DNA of 27,620 nucleotides from a virus. Taxonomy: Duplodnaviria > Caudoviricetes. Made by a program: the position numbers and the translations under genes. The DNA lies in the IMG/VR virus record IMGVR_UViG_3300008255_000394, positions 1-27,620 of that record; one strand, given 5' to 3'. Numbering within the stretch: the first letter of the stretch is position 1; each line of letters opens with the position of its first letter. Below are positions 1,145-22,237 of this stretch, piece after piece. The notes below the pieces were generated by a model. That model ran no database searches and was not told the DNA's origin. It saw only the letters and a program-made list of their open reading frames with translations.

Positions 1145-1214
1145 TACTTATAGTTGTTATAAAGGGAAAAAAGAACCCTGTGGAAAATGTAAAGCCTGTA
1201 AATCATTAAAATGA
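1119..1214 (+). pseudogene. queC: C-terminal remnant of QueC-like 7-cyano-7-deazaguanine synthase
   Basis: MNIRERNINTYSCYKGKKEPCGKCKACKSLK matches the QueC Zn-binding TxSCY...CGxCxxC motif; ATGA overlap with the TGT-like gene; N-terminal PP-loop domain absent. Confidence 0.7.
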
Positions 1215-2515
1215 AAATATTTTTTGCTGGAGCAGAATCAAATGAACATAGAAAATCATTATTAGAAATTGGAGTAAAAAATATTTTATTAACTTTTTAT
1301 TATTTAAAGGATAAAAATGATGAAAAAATAAAAGAAATGTTTGATGAATTAAAAAAAGAAAATATAAACATTTTTTTAGATAGTGGGGCATTCTCTTTTA
1401 TGTATTCAAGTAGTGAAAAACCATCTTTTGAAGTATTAGAAGATTATGTAAAAGAATATATACTTTTCTTAAAAAAATACAAGGATTATTTAGAAATATA
1501 TGTTGAATTAGATGTGGATAAAGTAATTGGATTAGAAAATACTTTAAAATTAAGACAAAATATGATAGATGAAGGATTAAATCCAGTATTAGTTCACCAT
1601 TTTGAAACAAGAACAGATGAAATGTGGGAAGAAGCATGCAAAAATAATAAAATAGTGGCAATGGGAAGTATTGCTCAAGGTGAGCAGTTAAACATAGGAA
1701 AAATAGCCTCTTTATTAAACATAGCAAATAAATACAAAACAAAAGTACATGGATTTGGATTTACAAGATTGGATTTATTAAACAAATTAAAATTTTATTC
1801 CGTTGATTCCACATCTTGGTTAGGAGGTAATAAATTTGGGCAAACTGAAACCTATTATTTTGATGGAAAACAATTAAGAGAATATAGTCAAGAGGATAAA
1901 AATATTAGATTAAAGTTTAAAGAATTATGTGAAAAGATAGGGGTAGATTTTGAAAAATTGATAAAAGATGATGGAAGAGAAGTAAGAAAATTTAATACTT
2001 ATAATTGGAAAATCTTTTCAGATTACTTAGAAAACGAGTCTAAAAATTCCGATGGAATAAAAATCAAAAACGGATATGATAATTCAAAGTTTAATGCAGT
2101 AAAAACAGGATTATATGCAAGACACCCGGAAGCATTAGAACATATTAAATGTCCAAAGAAATGCGATGTGTTTATGAATACAGGAAAATGTGTCCATACA
2201 AAAAATCTAAAGATTTTAGAGGTTAAAGATTTAGAGGATATGAAGAAGAAAATGCTCAAATTAATAAACTTCACAGGAAAGCGATATGTATCGGGTTTAA
2301 TAGGAGAAGAACAAACAGAAGGTTTGTTAGATAGGGCGGTAGATAGAGTAGCCAATAATTATGCCAAATATATTGAAACATATCAAAAATTAACGGTTCC
2401 CCAAAATGAGATAATCATTAAAAATGAAAAAAGCATCGTAGAACTTATGAGGGACGCAAGGAAAGAATTAGATAATATTGATAACAAAAGCGGAAGCGAT
2501 AAAGAAACTAATTGA
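1211..2515 (+). CDS. TGT/DpdA-like transglycosylase (N-terminal ~275 aa) fused to probable terminase small subunit
   Basis: FLDSGAFS, YVELDV, VHGFG and SVDSTSW TGT-fold motifs; C-terminal FNAVKTGLYA (TerS-type NAxKxGxY) plus Cys cluster; overlaps the TerL start. Confidence 0.7.
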   Translation: MKIFFAGAESNEHRKSLLEIGVKNILLTFYYLKDKNDEKIKEMFDELKKENINIFLDSGAFSFMYSSSEKPSFEVLEDYVKEYILFLKKYKDYLEIYVELDVDKVIGLENTLKLRQNMIDEGLNPVLVHHFETRTDEMWEEACKNNKIVAMGSIAQGEQLNIGKIASLLNIANKYKTKVHGFGFTRLDLLNKLKFYSVDSTSWLGGNKFGQTETYYFDGKQLREYSQEDKNIRLKFKELCEKIGVDFEKLIKDDGREVRKFNTYNWKIFSDYLENESKNSDGIKIKNGYDNSKFNAVKTGLYARHPEALEHIKCPKKCDVFMNTGKCVHTKNLKILEVKDLEDMKKKMLKLINFTGKRYVSGLIGEEQTEGLLDRAVDRVANNYAKYIETYQKLTVPQNEIIIKNEKSIVELMRDARKELDNIDNKSGSDKETN

Positions 2516-3917
2516 AAAAAGAGATGTTAGGATTTTTAATCAAAAATTCTTTGGAGTTAATTTAACAACAACTCAAGAAGAAATAGTAAGGACTGTAGCT
2601 TTTGATGAACATAAACGAGTGGTTATTTCTTGTATGACAAGATATGGAAAATCATTTTGTGTAAGTTTGGGTTTACTTTTATGGATTATGATGAATGAAA
2701 GAAAAAGATTGGGTATAATTGCCCCAACAAATGAAAAAACATCAATCCTAAGAAATTATATGTCTAATTTTATTACTATGTGCCCAGACTTAATGGATTT
2801 ATTGGATTTAGATAAAAAAGGAACAGATAGAATTAAAAAAGAAGTAAGTAAACGAAGAATGACATGGAGAAATGGTATAGAAATGAGAACCCTCTCAGCA
2901 GAAGGTCATGGAGAACAACTTATGGGTTTTGGTTTTGATAAAGTAGTTGTAGACGAAACTTGTGATATTAAATTTGAAGTATTTAGGTCAAGAATAACAA
3001 GAATGTTAGGAGATAGTCCAAATGCCACCTACGTTGAGATAGGAAACCCGTGGCATAGAGATAATCATATGTGGATGCATTGGATTAACCCAAATTGGTT
3101 TAAGATACACGTAGATTGGAAAACTGCTTTAAAAGAAGGAAGAATTAGTGAAAATTTTTTAGAAGAACAAAGAAATCAATTAACCAATAGGGAATTTAAA
3201 ATATTATATGAAGCAGAATTCCCAGAAGAAAGTGAAGACCAATTAATTCATTTTTCTTGGATAAGAGATGCCATTAAACCCTTTGTAGAAATTTCGGGAA
3301 TTAAAACACTCGGGGTAGATGTAGCAAGAACAGGAAAAGATAGCACAGTATTAACTTATGGAGTAGTTTCTAATGATTTTTATATAGTAAAAGGAATACA
3401 AGAGCATAATCAAGAGGATACTATGCGTACGGTGGATAGAATTTTAACATTGCATTATAAAGAAAAGTTTAATAGAATTATTGTGGATACAAATGGGCTT
3501 GGTGCTGGTGTAGCAGATAGATTAAATCAATTAAAAAGGGATGGTCAATTAAATTGTGAAATAATTGAATTCTTTGGGGGAAGACAACCAGGTCCAGAAA
3601 TTAAGAAAATAACTACGGAAAAGAAAGTGGTTAAATCAAGATTTTTAAATACAAAAGCAGAAGCGTATTTTAAATTAAGGAGTATATTTGAGGAGGGAAG
3701 AATTATAATTCCCAATAATCCAAAATTGATAGACCAATTAACTAAAATGAAATGGATACTTACGGGAAATGAAAAGATTAGAGTTTTAGACCCCGGTATT
3801 GCTAAAGAAGACACCAGTGAAGAAAAATCCCCTGATTTTGCAGATAGTTTGTGTTATTTTTGTTATTCGGGAAAGAGAGAAGTGCTTACATTTCAGTTTT
3901 TAGATTTTAAAAAATAA
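2478..3917 (+). CDS. terL: Terminase large subunit
   Basis: Walker A-like TRYGKS, Walker B VVVDE, IGNP coupling motif, RNase H-like LGVDVARTGKD, VDTNGLGAGV and SPDFADSL; TTG start. Confidence 0.95.
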   Translation: MITKAEAIKKLIEKRDVRIFNQKFFGVNLTTTQEEIVRTVAFDEHKRVVISCMTRYGKSFCVSLGLLLWIMMNERKRLGIIAPTNEKTSILRNYMSNFITMCPDLMDLLDLDKKGTDRIKKEVSKRRMTWRNGIEMRTLSAEGHGEQLMGFGFDKVVVDETCDIKFEVFRSRITRMLGDSPNATYVEIGNPWHRDNHMWMHWINPNWFKIHVDWKTALKEGRISENFLEEQRNQLTNREFKILYEAEFPEESEDQLIHFSWIRDAIKPFVEISGIKTLGVDVARTGKDSTVLTYGVVSNDFYIVKGIQEHNQEDTMRTVDRILTLHYKEKFNRIIVDTNGLGAGVADRLNQLKRDGQLNCEIIEFFGGRQPGPEIKKITTEKKVVKSRFLNTKAEAYFKLRSIFEEGRIIIPNNPKLIDQLTKMKWILTGNEKIRVLDPGIAKEDTSEEKSPDFADSLCYFCYSGKREVLTFQFLDFKK

Positions 3918-3928: not shown

Positions 3929-3949
3929 GACTAATTGATTGCCATAATG

Positions 3950-4432
3950 ATGACTTCTGGAAAATGCCCCCATCCTTGGAATAAAAATAAAAAAGGCACT
4001 TTTCTTAAAGGACATACCCAAATAAATAATGGAAAAGGTTATTTTGAGAAAGGTAGAAAAATACCAGAATGGCAAAAACAAGCAAATTCTTTAATACAAA
4101 CAGAAAGATATGAACTTGGTTTACACCCCCTAAAAAAATTGAATAAATTAGCATTCGAAAATAGATTAATAACTAATTGGTATGGCATTGGAAGAGCAAA
4201 TTGGAAAAAAAAATCTAAAGAAATACTTTTTAGAGATGGACATCATTGTATGAGATGCCATAAATCAATAAATAAATATAGTTATAATTGCCATCATAAG
4301 ATACCCTATCAAATAAGTAAAAATAACAGCGACAATAATTTAGTTTCATTATGTAGGAGTTGTCATACAATAGAAGAATGGAAAATAAGAAAAGAATTAA
4401 ATAAATCCAAAAACATCCAAAGATTTAAATAA
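3950..4432 (+). CDS. Free-standing HNH endonuclease 1
   Basis: PWNK and FxKG DNA-binding repeats; RDGHHCMRC, HHKIPY, NLVSLCRSCH; start moved to 3950 based on TATA spacing. Confidence 0.9.
   Translation: MTSGKCPHPWNKNKKGTFLKGHTQINNGKGYFEKGRKIPEWQKQANSLIQTERYELGLHPLKKLNKLAFENRLITNWYGIGRANWKKKSKEILFRDGHHCMRCHKSINKYSYNCHHKIPYQISKNNSDNNLVSLCRSCHTIEEWKIRKELNKSKNIQRFK
4424..4431 (+). promoter_or_regulatory. Archaeal TATA box (TTTAAATA) for portal
   Basis: 21 nt before ATG 4453; the 17-mer ATTTAAATAACAAAAAG recurs at 24471. Confidence 0.75.
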
Positions 4433-4452: not shown

Positions 4453-7400
4453 ATGTCTGAACCAAACTTAAAAAAAGAAATTGCCAGACTAAGAAGTGAA
4501 GTAAGAAAGTTATCAAAAGATAAGAACTTACAAAAAGAGACTAACCCATTTACAGGGCTTGTAACAGGTAACTATTGGACACAAACAGGGATGCCTTGGG
4601 TTTCAAGTTCTGGAAGGAAGGCGGTTCTCACGGAGTGGTTTTGATTTTATTAGGGAAACTAAATAAAAGAACAAGCAACCCATCAGAGGACAACCGAGAC
4701 GGGTAGATACCAATGAACTTAGACAGTTCTCTCAAACATTTTGGATTAATTCCTGTGTTAATACTTATTTAGATGAAATAAGCGGAGTAGATTGGGATAT
4801 AATTGAAAAAGAAGGATATAATCACGATTGGGTTAAAAAACAAATAAATGAAGTTAAAACCTTTTTTGAATATCCAAATAAAAACAGAGAAAGTTTAACT
4901 ACAATAATAAGAGCATTACTTAAAGATATTCTTGAATTAGATGCTGGTGTTTTAGTAAAAGTATTTGATATTAATTCTTATGATTTTGATAATATTGAAC
5001 CCAAATCTGGTTCGCCATTACTTAAACCAAAAGGTCAAAGAAAAATGGTTGAATTATACGCTCGTGATGGAGCTTGTATAAGATTTGGTGAAATGATAGA
5101 AACTGATTTGGGATTTATACCAATAGGCAGAATAGTCAATGAAAAAATACAATGTAATGTCAAATCATATAATTTAGAAACAAAAGAAATAGAATGGAAA
5201 CCCATTATCAATTGGTTCAATAACGGAGTTACTACCGATTGGATAAGATTGAAAGCAAAGACTAATAGAAAATTCAGAAGTTTGACTGCTACACCAAATC
5301 ATAATATTTTAACTCTTGAAGGATATAAACAAGCAAAAGATATTTATTGTGGAGATACAATATTCACACAAAGTTATGATATTACAGAAGACCAAAAACA
5401 GATTATTTTAGGTAGTTTATTGGGTGATGGTAGTTTAACTAAAGGAGACTCGCAACAAGCAAAATACAAATATTCTGAAACCCATTCAATAAAGCAAAAA
5501 GAATATTTACTTTGGAAAAGAGATAATCTCAATTTCTTAGATTGGAGAACAGAAGAATTTTTGTCAAGATATGATAAAAAACATCAACCAACAGAAAAGA
5601 TAAGGATTTATTCAAACGCAGAAATTATTTTTGAAGATTTTTATAATTTAAAATACCCAGAATTAAAAATAGAAATGATTGAGCAATTAAATGAACTTGG
5701 TTTGGCTATTTGGGTACAGGATGATGGATATTATAATCAAGATAGTTATTCTATTTCTTGTGGAAAGACACCATTAGATACATTGTATGAAATAGCAACA
5801 ACATTGTATTCTAAATTTGGAATAATCTTTAAAGTAAGAGAAGGAAATAAAGAGAATTTATTAGAAGTTGGAAGAGAGGACGGAAGAAAATTAAAGGAGT
5901 TAATAAAACCCTACATTCACACATCTATGTCCTACAAAATAGGTGAAGGAGAAAACAAAATAAAAGAGATAAACAAAGATTATTCAATAAAGATATACCC
6001 AGTAAAAATATATTCCAGAGAAGAATTAAATGAATATGATGCAAGATATGATATTGAAGTTCAAGACAATCATAATTTCTTTGCTCAAGGATTATTGGTT
6101 AGTAATAGTTTTTTAAAAGAGGTTGATAAATTTGGATTTGAAATAGGATATTGGCAATATAGTTATCAAATACCCGCACATCCAATGTGGTTTAATAAAG
6201 ATGAGGTTTGTTATATTAGTAGAAATCAAAGAAGTATGAGTTGTTATGGATTTGCACCCACACAGTCAATACTTGATATAGTGAAATCTCTTCATTATTC
6301 ACTTTTGTATAATAAACGATTTTTTGAAGAAAATTCAATACCAGATGGTGTTCTTAGTGTATTAGATACAAATGAAACAGAATTAAAAAATTTCATTTCA
6401 AATTGGCAAAGAGATTTTAAAGCACAACCTCATAAATTTGCGGTGTTGAATAAAGCTATTCAATGGCAACCTTTTACAATAACTCAAAGAGAATTAGAAT
6501 TTCTTGAAACACAAAGTTGGTATTATAAAATGGTTATAAGTGCTTTTGGTTTAACTCCAACTGAATTAGGTATTACAGAAGATGTTAATCGTGCAACGAG
6601 TAACAATCAATCAGAACTAAGTCGTAGAAAAGGAATAAGACCTTTGCTTAAGATACTTGAAAAATATTTTAATGAAGAAATAATAAGTGAATTTGGATAT
6701 GAAGGAATTGAATTTACATTTATTTATGATGACCCAAGTGAAAAAAACCAAAGATTAACTAATTGGAAACTTGAAATAGATATGGGAGTTAAAACTGTCA
6801 ATGAAATAAGAAATGAAATGGGGCTTGAACCAGTTGAATGGGGAGAATTACCAATGAGTAGTTTAGGTAGAATAGTTAGTTCCCCTATTGAAGAAAATAA
6901 TCCAAAACAAGAAGAAAAATACCAAATCAATCAAAAGAGAGAAGAAGGAAAAAATGAAGAAAAACCAGTAGAAAAAGGAAAAAAATTAATTATGGACACA
7001 GATGATTTAATCTCTGAACACGAGAAATTAGTAAGAATATTAGAGCAAGGAAATCCAAATGAATTAAAAGAAGAAGCAAAACATCAAAAAAATGAATTAA
7101 ATGATTATAAAAGACAAGCAGAAAAAGGAATAGACGACGGTCAATATTATAGAGAACCAAGTTATGAAATAGAAAATCGTGGAAAAATAACTCAACCGCA
7201 AAATGAAAATACTTGTCCTCATTGTGGTAAAAATACTTTAAACCTTGAAGTAGATTTAGACAGTTTAGTAGGAGAAGCAAAAAGGTATAGATGTATAAAT
7301 TGCAATAGTTACTTCACACAAGAAGAATTAGATAAAGAAGTTCTAAATTCTCTTAGTAATACTCTTATGGCTAATAATTCAACAGAGCCAGTGACCAACC

Positions 7401-7933
7401 CAACTTGGAGCCCGAAGTCTTGTCAGAATTGTTCTAATGAGCAAAAACCACTAAATAAAGGAGACGTTGATATGGAAACAAAGGATTTTTGTGGTTTTGA
7501 TTATTCAAAGAGTTATGAACAAATAAGTGCTTATATAAACTCAAAAGAATATGAAAAATTACTCGATAAATATTTAAGTGATTTAACTAAAAAAAAAAGA
7601 GATAAAATAAAAGAAATAATTTATTTAGGAATGAAAGATGGCTTAACAATCAGAGAAATTTCAAATAGAATAAATAAAATAATAAAAGACGAAGAAAGAA
7701 GTGAATTAATAAGCAGAACCGAAGTAATAAGAGTTGCTAATGAAGGACAAATTAAAAAGTTTGAAGAAAAAGGCGTTGAAAAAGTTATTTGGCTTTCAGC
7801 ACCAGAAGATGGGAGATTATGTAATAAATGTAAAAAATTAGACAGAAAAATATTTTTAACAAAAAATATAAAAGGAAAAATTCCTCTTCATTGTCGTTGT
7901 AGGTGTTCGGTTTCAGAATATATAGAGGTATAA
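4453..7933 (+). CDS. Portal protein, join(4453..4643,4675..7933), with intein and C-terminal Zn-ribbon and MuF (SPP1 gp7-like) domains
   Basis: Spliced frame is 1149 aa (805 aa after intein removal); portal motifs YGFAP, FFEENSIPDGVLSV, ISAFGLTPTELG, TVNEIRNEMGLEP; MuF motifs ISRTEV, RLCNKC, IPLHCRCRCS; 4667-5044 is open in the portal frame but has no start codon. Confidence 0.85.
4644..4674 (+). other. 31-nt archaeal bulge-helix-bulge (BHB) intron in portal mRNA
   Basis: Central helix GUUU(4638-41)/GAAC(4669-72), 3-nt bulges UG^A (4642-44) and AA^G (4673-75), intron stem UUUUAUUAG/CUAAAUAAAA; removal gives TGG and restores the frame. Confidence 0.8.
5075..6106 (+). mobile_element. Intein with LAGLIDADG homing endonuclease (344 aa) in portal
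   Basis: Starts at Cys (RDGA|CIRFGEMIET), block B ATPNHNIL, LAGLIDADG motifs IILGSLLGDG and LAIWVQDDG, ends YDIEVQDNHNFFAQGLLVSN|S. Confidence 0.93.
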
Positions 7934-15272: not shown

Positions 15273-15824
15273 ATGAAGCAAGGGCAGACAAACAAAGGCA
15301 GTTTTAAGAAAAATTGTATTCCTTGGAATAAGGGAGTAAAAGGATATAATAAAGGACATCCTTCTTATACTTTAGGAAAGCACTGGAAGTTAAATCAGGA
15401 GACTAAAGATAAAATAGGTAGAGCTAATTCTATATCTTTGAAAGGAAAAATATTGCCCCAAACAGTTAAGGATAAGATAAGTAAAGCGAATAAGGGAAAA
15501 GTTCCAAAGGTGACTTACCAAAAAGGAGAAAAGCACCCTAATTGGAAAGGTGGTATAAGTAATGAACCTTATGGACAGGAATTTAATAAGGAATTAAAGG
15601 AAAAAGTAAGAAAGAAATATAATTATAGATGTCAAGAGTGTTTCAGGCATCAGAATGAACTTTATAGAAAAGGAAGTAAATATAGTTTGATAGTGCATCA
15701 TATAGATTTCAACAAAAAAAATAATCAGGAAGATAATTTAATTCCTTTGTGTTTAGAATGTCATTCACAAACTAATTTCAATAGGCAGAACTGGATAAAT
15801 CATTTTCAGGGGAAGATTATATGA
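15273..15824 (+). CDS. Free-standing HNH endonuclease 2 (NUMOD3-like repeats)
   Basis: PWNKG, ETKDKIG, HPNWKGG, CQEC, VHHIDFNKKNN, NLIPLCLECH. Confidence 0.92.
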   Translation: MKQGQTNKGSFKKNCIPWNKGVKGYNKGHPSYTLGKHWKLNQETKDKIGRANSISLKGKILPQTVKDKISKANKGKVPKVTYQKGEKHPNWKGGISNEPYGQEFNKELKEKVRKKYNYRCQECFRHQNELYRKGSKYSLIVHHIDFNKKNNQEDNLIPLCLECHSQTNFNRQNWINHFQGKII

Positions 15825-19571: not shown

Positions 19572-20033
19572 ATGGCTTATGCCAAATATCATAGGAAAGA
19601 AAAAGAAAGAGAAAAATCAAAAAAAAGATATGATATGGGATTATACAATCGTAAGAATAAGAAAAACAAGTATAAAAAAAAGGGATATAATCCAAATTCA
19701 AAACCTATAAAAGAAAAACATTGGAATTGGAAAGGGGGAATTACTCCTTTAAGAGATGTAATAAGACATCTTTTTGAATATAGGCAATGGCGTTCAGATG
19801 TATTTACAAGAGATAATTTTACTTGTCAATATTGTGGGGTTAGAGGATGTTATCTTGAAGCAGACCATCATATAAAATCATTTGCACAAATTATAGAGGA
19901 GAACAATATAAATACAATTGAAAAAGCAATTAATTGTGAAGAATTATGGAATCTTAATAATGGAAGAACTCTATGTAAAGATTGTCATAATTTAACTAAA
20001 ACAAGGAGGTTAAATAAATGCAAAAAGATATAG
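19572..20033 (+). CDS. Free-standing HNH endonuclease 3
   Basis: HWNWKGGIT, WRSDVFTRDNFTCQYCG, DHHIKSF, NNGRTLCKDCH. Confidence 0.92.
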   Translation: MAYAKYHRKEKEREKSKKRYDMGLYNRKNKKNKYKKKGYNPNSKPIKEKHWNWKGGITPLRDVIRHLFEYRQWRSDVFTRDNFTCQYCGVRGCYLEADHHIKSFAQIIEENNINTIEKAINCEELWNLNNGRTLCKDCHNLTKTRRLNKCKKI

Positions 20034-21619: not shown

Positions 21620-21743
21620 ATTTAATTTAACCACTTTAGAAAGATTAATGACTATGAATAATAATTTTTTATATAAAATTCTTGAGCAATTAAATGAAAT
21701 AAAAAATGAAATTAAATTAATTAAATCGGAGGTAAAAAAATGA
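21612..21743 (+). CDS. 43-aa coiled-coil ORF (not in ORF track)
   Basis: MPEFNLTTLERLMTMNNNFLYKILEQLNEIKNEIKLIKSEVKK; GAGGAG upstream, ATGA overlap with HNH4. Confidence 0.45.
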   Translation: MPEFNLTTLERLMTMNNNFLYKILEQLNEIKNEIKLIKSEVKK

Positions 21744-22237
21744 CATTTCAAAAAGGAGAAAAAAATTTTATGTTTGGTAAAATACCTTGGAATAAAGGTA
21801 AAAAAATGTCTAAAGAAACAAGAGAAAAACTTAGTGAAAGTCATAAAGGTAAAAATATAGGACACCCAAAATATAATTTTAAATCGGCATGGAATAAAGG
21901 ATTAATTGGTTTCAAATCTGGTTCAGAACATTATAATTGGAAAGGGGGCATTACTCCATTTAACAGAAAATTAAGATGTAGTTCTAAATGGAAAATTTGG
22001 AGAGAATTGGTTTTTTTAAGAGATAATTTCATTTGCCAAAATCCAAATTGTGAATATTGTCGTAACAAAATTGGAAATATGTTGCATCCGCATCATATTA
22101 AACCAATAAGTTTATATCCAAAATTAGCATTCGATGTAAATAATGGAATTACTTATTGCAAGGAATTTCATATAAATTCAAAAAAACTACATAAAGGAAT
22201 TTTGAAAGGAGGAAGATTACAATTACATACACATTAA
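21740..22237 (+). CDS. Free-standing HNH endonuclease 4 (NUMOD3)
   Basis: PWNKGKKMSKETREKLSESHKG, HYNWKGG, VFLRDNFICQ, HPHHIKP, NNGITYCKEFH. Confidence 0.92.
   Translation: MTFQKGEKNFMFGKIPWNKGKKMSKETREKLSESHKGKNIGHPKYNFKSAWNKGLIGFKSGSEHYNWKGGITPFNRKLRCSSKWKIWRELVFLRDNFICQNPNCEYCRNKIGNMLHPHHIKPISLYPKLAFDVNNGITYCKEFHINSKKLHKGILKGGRLQLHTH

Follow-up and report, generated by a model that had tools for sequence, protein, structure and literature searches.

Small terminases (TerS) of the classical kinds (SF6/SPP1, Sf6, P22, HK97 and T4-like) are encoded by genes that overlap the gene for the large subunit (TerL) and have a central two-helix hairpin and a C-terminal tail, and many small terminases carry a DNA-binding domain on the outside of the ring. 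TerS families have been predicted to form assemblies of seven or more subunits in 37 of 38 cases (bioRxiv 10.64898/2026.05.24.727406). The other group of proteins relevant here, the phage DpdA1 enzymes, is treated in PMC6884629, PMC7544227 and PMC10516641. Pocket, acid/base and nucleophile residues have been proposed for the DpdA of phage CAjan from a homology model (PMC7544227), both catalytic Asp residues of the Salmonella DpdA were reported to be required for base exchange (PMC10164549), and DpdA is described as acting after replication (PMC10516641). Orion is reported as a phage with DpdA only and unmodified DNA (PMC6884629), and in rosebushviruses the genes for modification precede those for terminase (PMC10484667).

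Here we describe a gene in which a DpdA barrel and a candidate small terminase are joined in one reading frame. It lies in the window, by which we mean the whole 27,620 nucleotide stretch that was analysed (IMG/VR record IMGVR_UViG_3300008255_000394; Duplodnaviria, Caudoviricetes), a linear virus contig of approximately 70% completeness and 30% G+C. The features of the locus are as follows.

1211..2515, + strand: DpdA-TerS (candidate) fusion gene, 434 aa; junction unchanged in an independent contig
1211..2038, + strand: DpdA/TGT barrel, aa 1-276 (PHROG 887; tblastn to 9g-type DpdA; Foldseek matches to TGT; pLDDT)
1379..1393, + strand: D57-S58-G-A-F61, predicted acid/base Asp and base pocket (CAjan D63, S64, F67; CAjan DpdA alignment, roles from PMC7544227)
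1511..1513, + strand: D101, conserved Asp, invariant in an alignment of homologues and likely equivalent to CAjan D105
1598..1600, + strand: H130 (CAjan H132; CAjan DpdA alignment)
1748..1756, + strand: H180-G-F182 (CAjan H187, F189; CAjan DpdA alignment)
1805..1807, + strand: D199, predicted nucleophile (CAjan D206; CAjan DpdA alignment, roles from PMC7544227)
2039..2092, + strand: low-confidence linker (pLDDT <50; no in-frame ATG, GTG or TTG between aa 251 and 319)
2093..2116, + strand: NAVKTGLY motif (sequence)
2141..2197, + strand: predicted metal knuckle H311-x2-C314-x3-C318-x8-C327-x-H329 (family form CxxC..C..C; putative metal binding)
2231..2395, + strand: antiparallel helical hairpin, aa 341-395, with conserved R358, E366, G371 and D374; predicted ring-forming core (pLDDT about 87-97)
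2435..2512, + strand: C-terminal helix, predicted TerL-docking tail (structure model)
2478..3917, + strand: terminase large subunit, 479 aa (Pfam Terminase_6N/6C; PHROG 2)
3935..4432, + strand: HNH endonuclease, downstream of TerL (the window has four HNH ORFs)
5045..7933, + strand: intein-bearing portal, joined to a Mu gpF-like domain

The virus record was matched in aquifer and groundwater sequencing runs, and a TerL relative at 42% identity was named from an Aenigmatarchaeota MAG, a weak hint of an archaeal host. Downstream of TerL lie the intein-bearing portal and the protease, capsid and tail genes. We also noted several other features of the window. The portal intein is of the LAGLIDADG type, and the four HNH endonuclease ORFs (3935-4432, 15273-15824, 19572-20033 and 21740-22237) are spread over the structural operon. 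In the region 4453-5045, a 63-aa ORF ahead of the portal resembles, by eye, a 74-aa ORF in a related virus (region L386:3930-4414); both are followed by a gap of 260-400 bp up to the portal ORF and possibly represent a portal N-terminus split by an intron or a frameshift. The peptide MKTKINQVIITNKTDKLVF is encoded by a duplicated stretch (515-570 and 1049-1105) in two small upstream ORFs.

A sequence-only reading of the window had proposed a single 434-aa frame with LDSGAFS (1376-1396), ELDV, HGFG, SVDSTSW (1799-1819) and NAVKTGLY (2093-2116) motifs and a Cys cluster. The frame is present at 1211-2515 (+), its 3′ end shares 38 bp with the TerL ORF, every motif lies where it had been placed, and the Cys cluster corresponds to C314, C318 and C327. 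That reading had also considered a one-off sequencing error. A contig from a second study (run X2, record 11) spans positions 1946-2611, which include the linker and the TerL overlap, with 0 differences, and a full-length homologue of the fusion protein (P0002) was found at 51% identity; together these rule out sequencing or assembly error as the source of the fusion. An internal start yielding a separate TerS was rejected in turn, given the lack of in-frame ATG, GTG and TTG codons over aa 251-319 of the window gene.

The first 276 residues matched PHROG 887 (E 3e-41), and tblastn with the barrel returned 172 phage records, phage 9g DpdA among them. The AlphaFold model of the fusion protein had a mean pLDDT of 73.6, with values of 74-97 in most 10-residue blocks of the barrel and dips at 151-160 and 201-210, and its top PDB matches by Foldseek were tRNA-guanine transglycosylases. 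D57, S58, F61, H130, G152, F182 and D199 were in register with CAjan D63, S64, F67, H132, G153, F189 and D206, so that both catalytic Asp residues aligned (D57 with D63, D199 with D206), as the TGT/DpdA identity claimed earlier would lead one to expect. The CAjan G154 position is occupied by S153, and D101 is only tentatively equated with CAjan D105 because the HMM alignment places D105 three residues off. The bacterial DpdA model NCBIfam NF041059 gave 24.6 bits, and its equivalog cut-off of 200 was not reached. These comparisons support the identification of the window barrel as a phage DpdA with intact catalytic residues, for which base-exchange activity is predicted. FolE, QueD, QueE and QueC were not detected in a profile search of the first 12 kb or in PHROG and Pfam scans of the other ORFs of this 70%-complete contig; preQ0 would presumably come from the host or from the missing part of the genome.

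Residues ~288-434 belong to a large module family, in which a Cys knuckle is followed by a helical hairpin and then a tail. Among the best 150 family matches, CxxC..C..C was present in 148, with His311 at the first Cys position in the window protein, and a NAVKTGLY-type pattern, a motif that we assume to be linked to TerS, in 26. The family motif R..FE..GG..D falls inside the two-helix hairpin, the helices of which (H341-368 and H374-395) form a generic fold. Sequence searches of Pfam, NCBIfam and the PDB with the protein or the module returned nothing for the module, Pfam has no model of the family, and a search of viral contigs with the full protein for related loci gave no match. No HTH domain was matched in the window protein (Pfam, PHROG), and the knuckle and barrel occupy that place. 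PDB fold searches of the module yielded generic hairpins alone and no solved TerS, a result with which a TerS fold is compatible. None of the BFVD matches reached significance (best E 0.028); a 128-aa archaeal virus protein headed them and the TerS of a Gordonia phage stood fifth. An Atlas feature search, in which all scores were under 0.9, placed TerS-labelled clusters at 0.76-0.78, which we regard as a lead. The module tail showed a weak likeness to the tail of an HTH gene that precedes a related TerL, a score reached by 78 of 2000 shuffles.

A module profile built from nine C-terminal parts retrieved 1129 clusters at a cut-off of E<=0.001. The search for the same fusion in other genomes had been suggested at the outset; barrel and module were joined in 94 of the best 150 of these 1129 clusters. 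Another 38 of the 150 were short, and some of these could be pieces of fused genes; the other 18 had different forms, HNH fusions and barely recognisable barrels among them. An HNH domain precedes the same module in L095:4146-5285, L098:4725-5795, P0175, P0223, P0230, P0239, P0242 and P0250, and in L095 and L098 this gene comes straight after a separate dpdA and is followed by neck-like genes.

Gene context was compared for 138 module ORFs from loci >700 bp, which formed 51 clusters at 60% identity once shorter loci and one spurious match had been dropped; TerL was called with a purpose-built profile plus two ORFs confirmed separately. Intact fusions made up 24 clusters, with TerL within 1 kb in 7 and a Que gene nearby in 16. 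Ten clusters had substituted barrels (TerL within 1 kb in 1, a preQ0/Que gene nearby in 1), although that one cluster, L097, is apparently misclassified because its catalytic Asp is retained by eye; a catalytic Asp is lost from the barrel in about 9-10 of the 51. The halves were separate genes in 8 clusters, all within about 2.6 kb of dpdA and none adjoining TerL (TerL within 1 kb in 0, a Que gene in 6). The remaining 9 clusters had no DpdA in the locus, counting L127, which is cut at a contig edge, and L226, with a dpdA 20 kb away; 7 of the 9 lay within 1 kb upstream of TerL and none had a Que gene. In one locus (L388) the fusion sits behind QueE, FolE, QueC and a QueF-like gene and one ORF ahead of TerL. 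Besides Que genes, intact fusions repeatedly have glycosyltransferase-like ORFs, judged by inspection, immediately upstream of them (L001, L003, L097, L146 and L076), a hint that the inserted base is modified further.

Free modules of 133-207 aa adjoin TerL in L173 and L222 (gap 0), L153 (overlap) and L354 (4 bp), where they precede three different TerL types, that of L354 being GpA-type; no DpdA barrel was matched in the L354 genome. More generally, the module abuts TerL in records without a barrel match, complete genomes among them. The barrel is thus not needed, because free modules of ~130 aa occupy the TerS slot without it. Another free module (L345:4623-5183), from a Woesearchaeota MAG, has cellular genes as neighbours and no terminase close by. 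Module queries also matched gp9 of Gordonia phage Katyusha and gp1 of Rhodococcus phage Mbo2, both annotated as TerS and both directly before TerL, and PHROG 6902, which carries a TerS label that may rest on gene position, was matched by 16 of 34 short module members and had no match to the window protein.

A second line of evidence came from the only viral contig retrieved with the window TerL as query (L386; TerL 52% identical), in which a 167-aa HTH-type gene overlaps TerL. No module was detected in this virus, the same search having recovered 4 of 4 positive controls in one copy each, and direct BLASTP of the module against the HTH gene gave no match (E 2.1). This gene (L386:1843-2346) and a comparable HTH gene overlapping TerL (L094:5679-6149) match PHROG 645, labelled 'Rnase E', which may consist of mislabelled small terminases. 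The earlier statement that TerL has no other TerS candidate beside it agrees with our scans of this 70%-complete contig, as 5 small upstream ORFs and 22 further ORFs had no TerS PHROG match; three of the four HNH ORFs match a TerS-labelled PHROG through their HNH part alone.

We conclude that the module (aa ~288-434) is probably a small terminase, because free members adjoin three TerL types, an HTH gene fills its slot in a related virus, and the module outlasts dead barrels. The small-terminase-like domain claimed by the sequence-only reading is well supported by gene context over many genomes, with no match to a solved TerS structure. The main competing view of the module is that it is an oligomerisation or DNA-targeting accessory of DpdA, found near TerL since modification clusters often precede packaging genes. 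Consistent with this, TerL is missing from the surrounding 1 kb in 34 of the 42 clusters linked to DpdA, split modules remain close to dpdA, dpdA genes that are not fused are likewise found near TerL, including in rosebushviruses (PMC10484667), one genome (L094) carries both a module and an HTH gene resembling TerS (Pfam Terminase_5) before TerL, and the module has no structural match to solved TerS. An accessory of DpdA would not, however, be expected to adjoin TerL in records without a barrel match, to fill the slot of the HTH gene of a related virus or to be kept with a dead barrel and no nearby preQ0 genes, and we judge this view improbable. For module-far-from-TerL clusters, 33 records were searched and TerL was found in 22; among 32 ORFs upstream of TerL in 20 such genomes there was no TerS PHROG match, the ORFs including QueD, phosphoesterases, a glycosyltransferase and small unknowns. 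A helical ORF of 73-94 aa recurs upstream of TerL in three of these genomes, and because of this ORF and the divergence of TerS genes another TerS is possible there.

To establish how often the barrel remains catalytically equipped, we surveyed 217 long module-bearing proteins in 140 clusters. Both catalytic Asp residues were kept in 95 clusters, 25 were flagged as substituted, 5 were truncated and 15 had no barrel match. Further inspection revealed that in 8 of the 25 flagged clusters the VDS of the nucleophile motif is directly followed by an intein, with both ends seen in 7, and these eight barrels would be intact after splicing. Truly substituted barrels therefore number about 16-17 of 140 clusters; they are full-length and recognisable, and include BRock gp36 and related actinophage proteins. 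Inteins at this one DpdA site were recorded in P0123, P0126, P0164, P0183, P0210, P0243, L305:2904-5486, L233:4590-7529 and L353:2064-5501, and a literature search on both terms found no report of an intein in DpdA.

A FastTree phylogeny of 146 barrels (100 fused, 7 split and 39 unlinked, a sampling biased to fused forms) was rooted at the midpoint. Module linkage changes 6 times on this tree, against a shuffled mean of 34, fused barrels span it, and on the midpoint-rooted tree split and unlinked barrels nest among fused ones. A placement of CAjan DpdA among fused forms, on a very long branch, is given no weight here. The pattern is consistent with an ancient fusion followed by recurrent fission and decay, and neither half always needs the other, because both fission and barrel-free modules occur. 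We also considered whether the N-terminus of the Gordonia and Rhodococcus TerS is a decayed DpdA barrel; the idea gained no support, with an hhalign probability of 1-2% and HMM scores no better than those of 400 shuffles. For seven other decayed barrels the profile match was weak (probability 62%, E 7.5e-5).

The explanation that we consider best, and rather probable as a whole, is that the window protein combines a catalytically equipped DpdA with a likely small terminase, with a loose link between modification and packaging. The DpdA barrel would replace guanine with a 7-deazaguanine base throughout the viral DNA, and the back ~145 residues, as small terminase, would form a ring through their helical hairpins, with the C-terminal tail docking on the adjacent TerL. 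The barrels would then sit on the ring outside, at the usual place of the DNA-binding domain, where they could help to grip replicated DNA; this arrangement of ring, tail and outer barrels is drawn by analogy with known small terminases. Because DpdA acts after replication, one late protein could both modify new genomes and start their packaging. The module would be the conserved and probably essential part, with DpdA riding on it, and the link between the two activities would not be required. A preQ0 gene was nearby in 1 of 10 clusters in which the module is retained with an Asp-less barrel, compared with 16 of 24 with an intact barrel, and such retained dead barrels suggest a DNA-holding role.

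Physical coupling of modification to packaging, as first proposed, could be much stricter than this: a DpdA ring would modify DNA at or entering the motor, or packaging would start only on DNA recognised or marked by DpdA. The age and frequency of the fusion (6 label changes against the shuffled mean of 34), the retention of both Asp residues in 95 of 140 clusters, plus 8 in which an intein is the sole interruption, and the post-replicative action of DpdA (PMC10516641), which coincides with the time window of packaging, all speak for such coupling. The comparative data nevertheless lean against a strict link: of 51 clusters, 8 show fission, about 9-10 have dead barrels and 9 lack DpdA in the locus. 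Moreover, TerL is distant in 34 of the 42 clusters linked to DpdA, and CAjan DpdA, which has no module, is reported still to modify about 32% of G (PMC6884629). Tight coupling is accordingly unlikely to a marked degree. A broader version, namely an old and widespread TerS class in which a DpdA ring writes or checks 7-deazaguanine at handover to the motor and in which a dead barrel serves some lineages as a DNA-reading domain, is also unlikely.

At the other extreme, loss of a stop codon could have fused TerS and DpdA a single time, with each half working on its own and the barrel contributing nothing to packaging. A dpdA gene often lies upstream of terS-terL (for example in L062), the halves have separated repeatedly and the linker is of low confidence, all as such a passive joining would predict. 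Against it, about 16-17 of 140 clusters have substituted barrels that stay full-length, suggesting that these barrels serve some non-catalytic purpose, and of all the alternatives weighed here we give this one the least credence.

The fusion is real and widespread, unites two known kinds of protein and is apparently undescribed. No description of a DpdA-TerS fusion was found in the literature searched (subscription papers and bioRxiv supplements lay outside the search), and the word 'terminase' does not occur in the main texts and searched supplements of the DpdA surveys PMC6884629 and PMC10516641. With this pairing, one molecule would serve both DNA modification and genome packaging. It defines a Cys-knuckle family of putative small terminases without a Pfam model, and provides a candidate TerS for phages with no TerS match before TerL, namely BRock, BCD7 and 20 related records of 43-113 kb. 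Genes counted as DpdA can evidently be catalytically dead, possibly being kept for packaging, and with BCD7 (intact barrel) and BRock (dead barrel) both in culture, the packaging link is open to a direct test.

Compared with known systems, the window protein resembles gp35 of Escherichia phage CAjan and the DpdA1 of phage 9g in its TGT barrel, with catalytic and pocket residues aligned to those of CAjan DpdA. The CAjan protein, in contrast, has 306 aa, lacks the module and is encoded beside a DNA polymerase and Que genes, whereas the window DpdA is fused and overlaps TerL, with no Que genes seen. The same architecture of barrel plus module occurs in two PHROG 887 members, gp021 of Bacillus phage BCD7 (YP_007005872) and gp36 of Streptomyces phage BRock (APC46298), both listed as DpdA in the supplement of PMC6884629. 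Unlike the window gene, both lie far from TerL; the BCD7 barrel is intact, and in BRock gp36 a Ser replaces the nucleophile Asp. Katyusha gp9 and Mbo2 gp1 (PHROG 6902) share the C-terminal module (E 9e-16 and 6e-9), have about 460 aa and directly precede TerL; their N-terminal part has no significant match to the DpdA barrel, and TerS is their annotation. The window module has no sequence match or specific fold match to solved classical TerS; the window protein shares with the classical TerS the TerL-overlapping position, the two-helix hairpin and the C-terminal tail, and differs from them in carrying a Cys/His knuckle and a 276-aa enzyme in place of the HTH domain.
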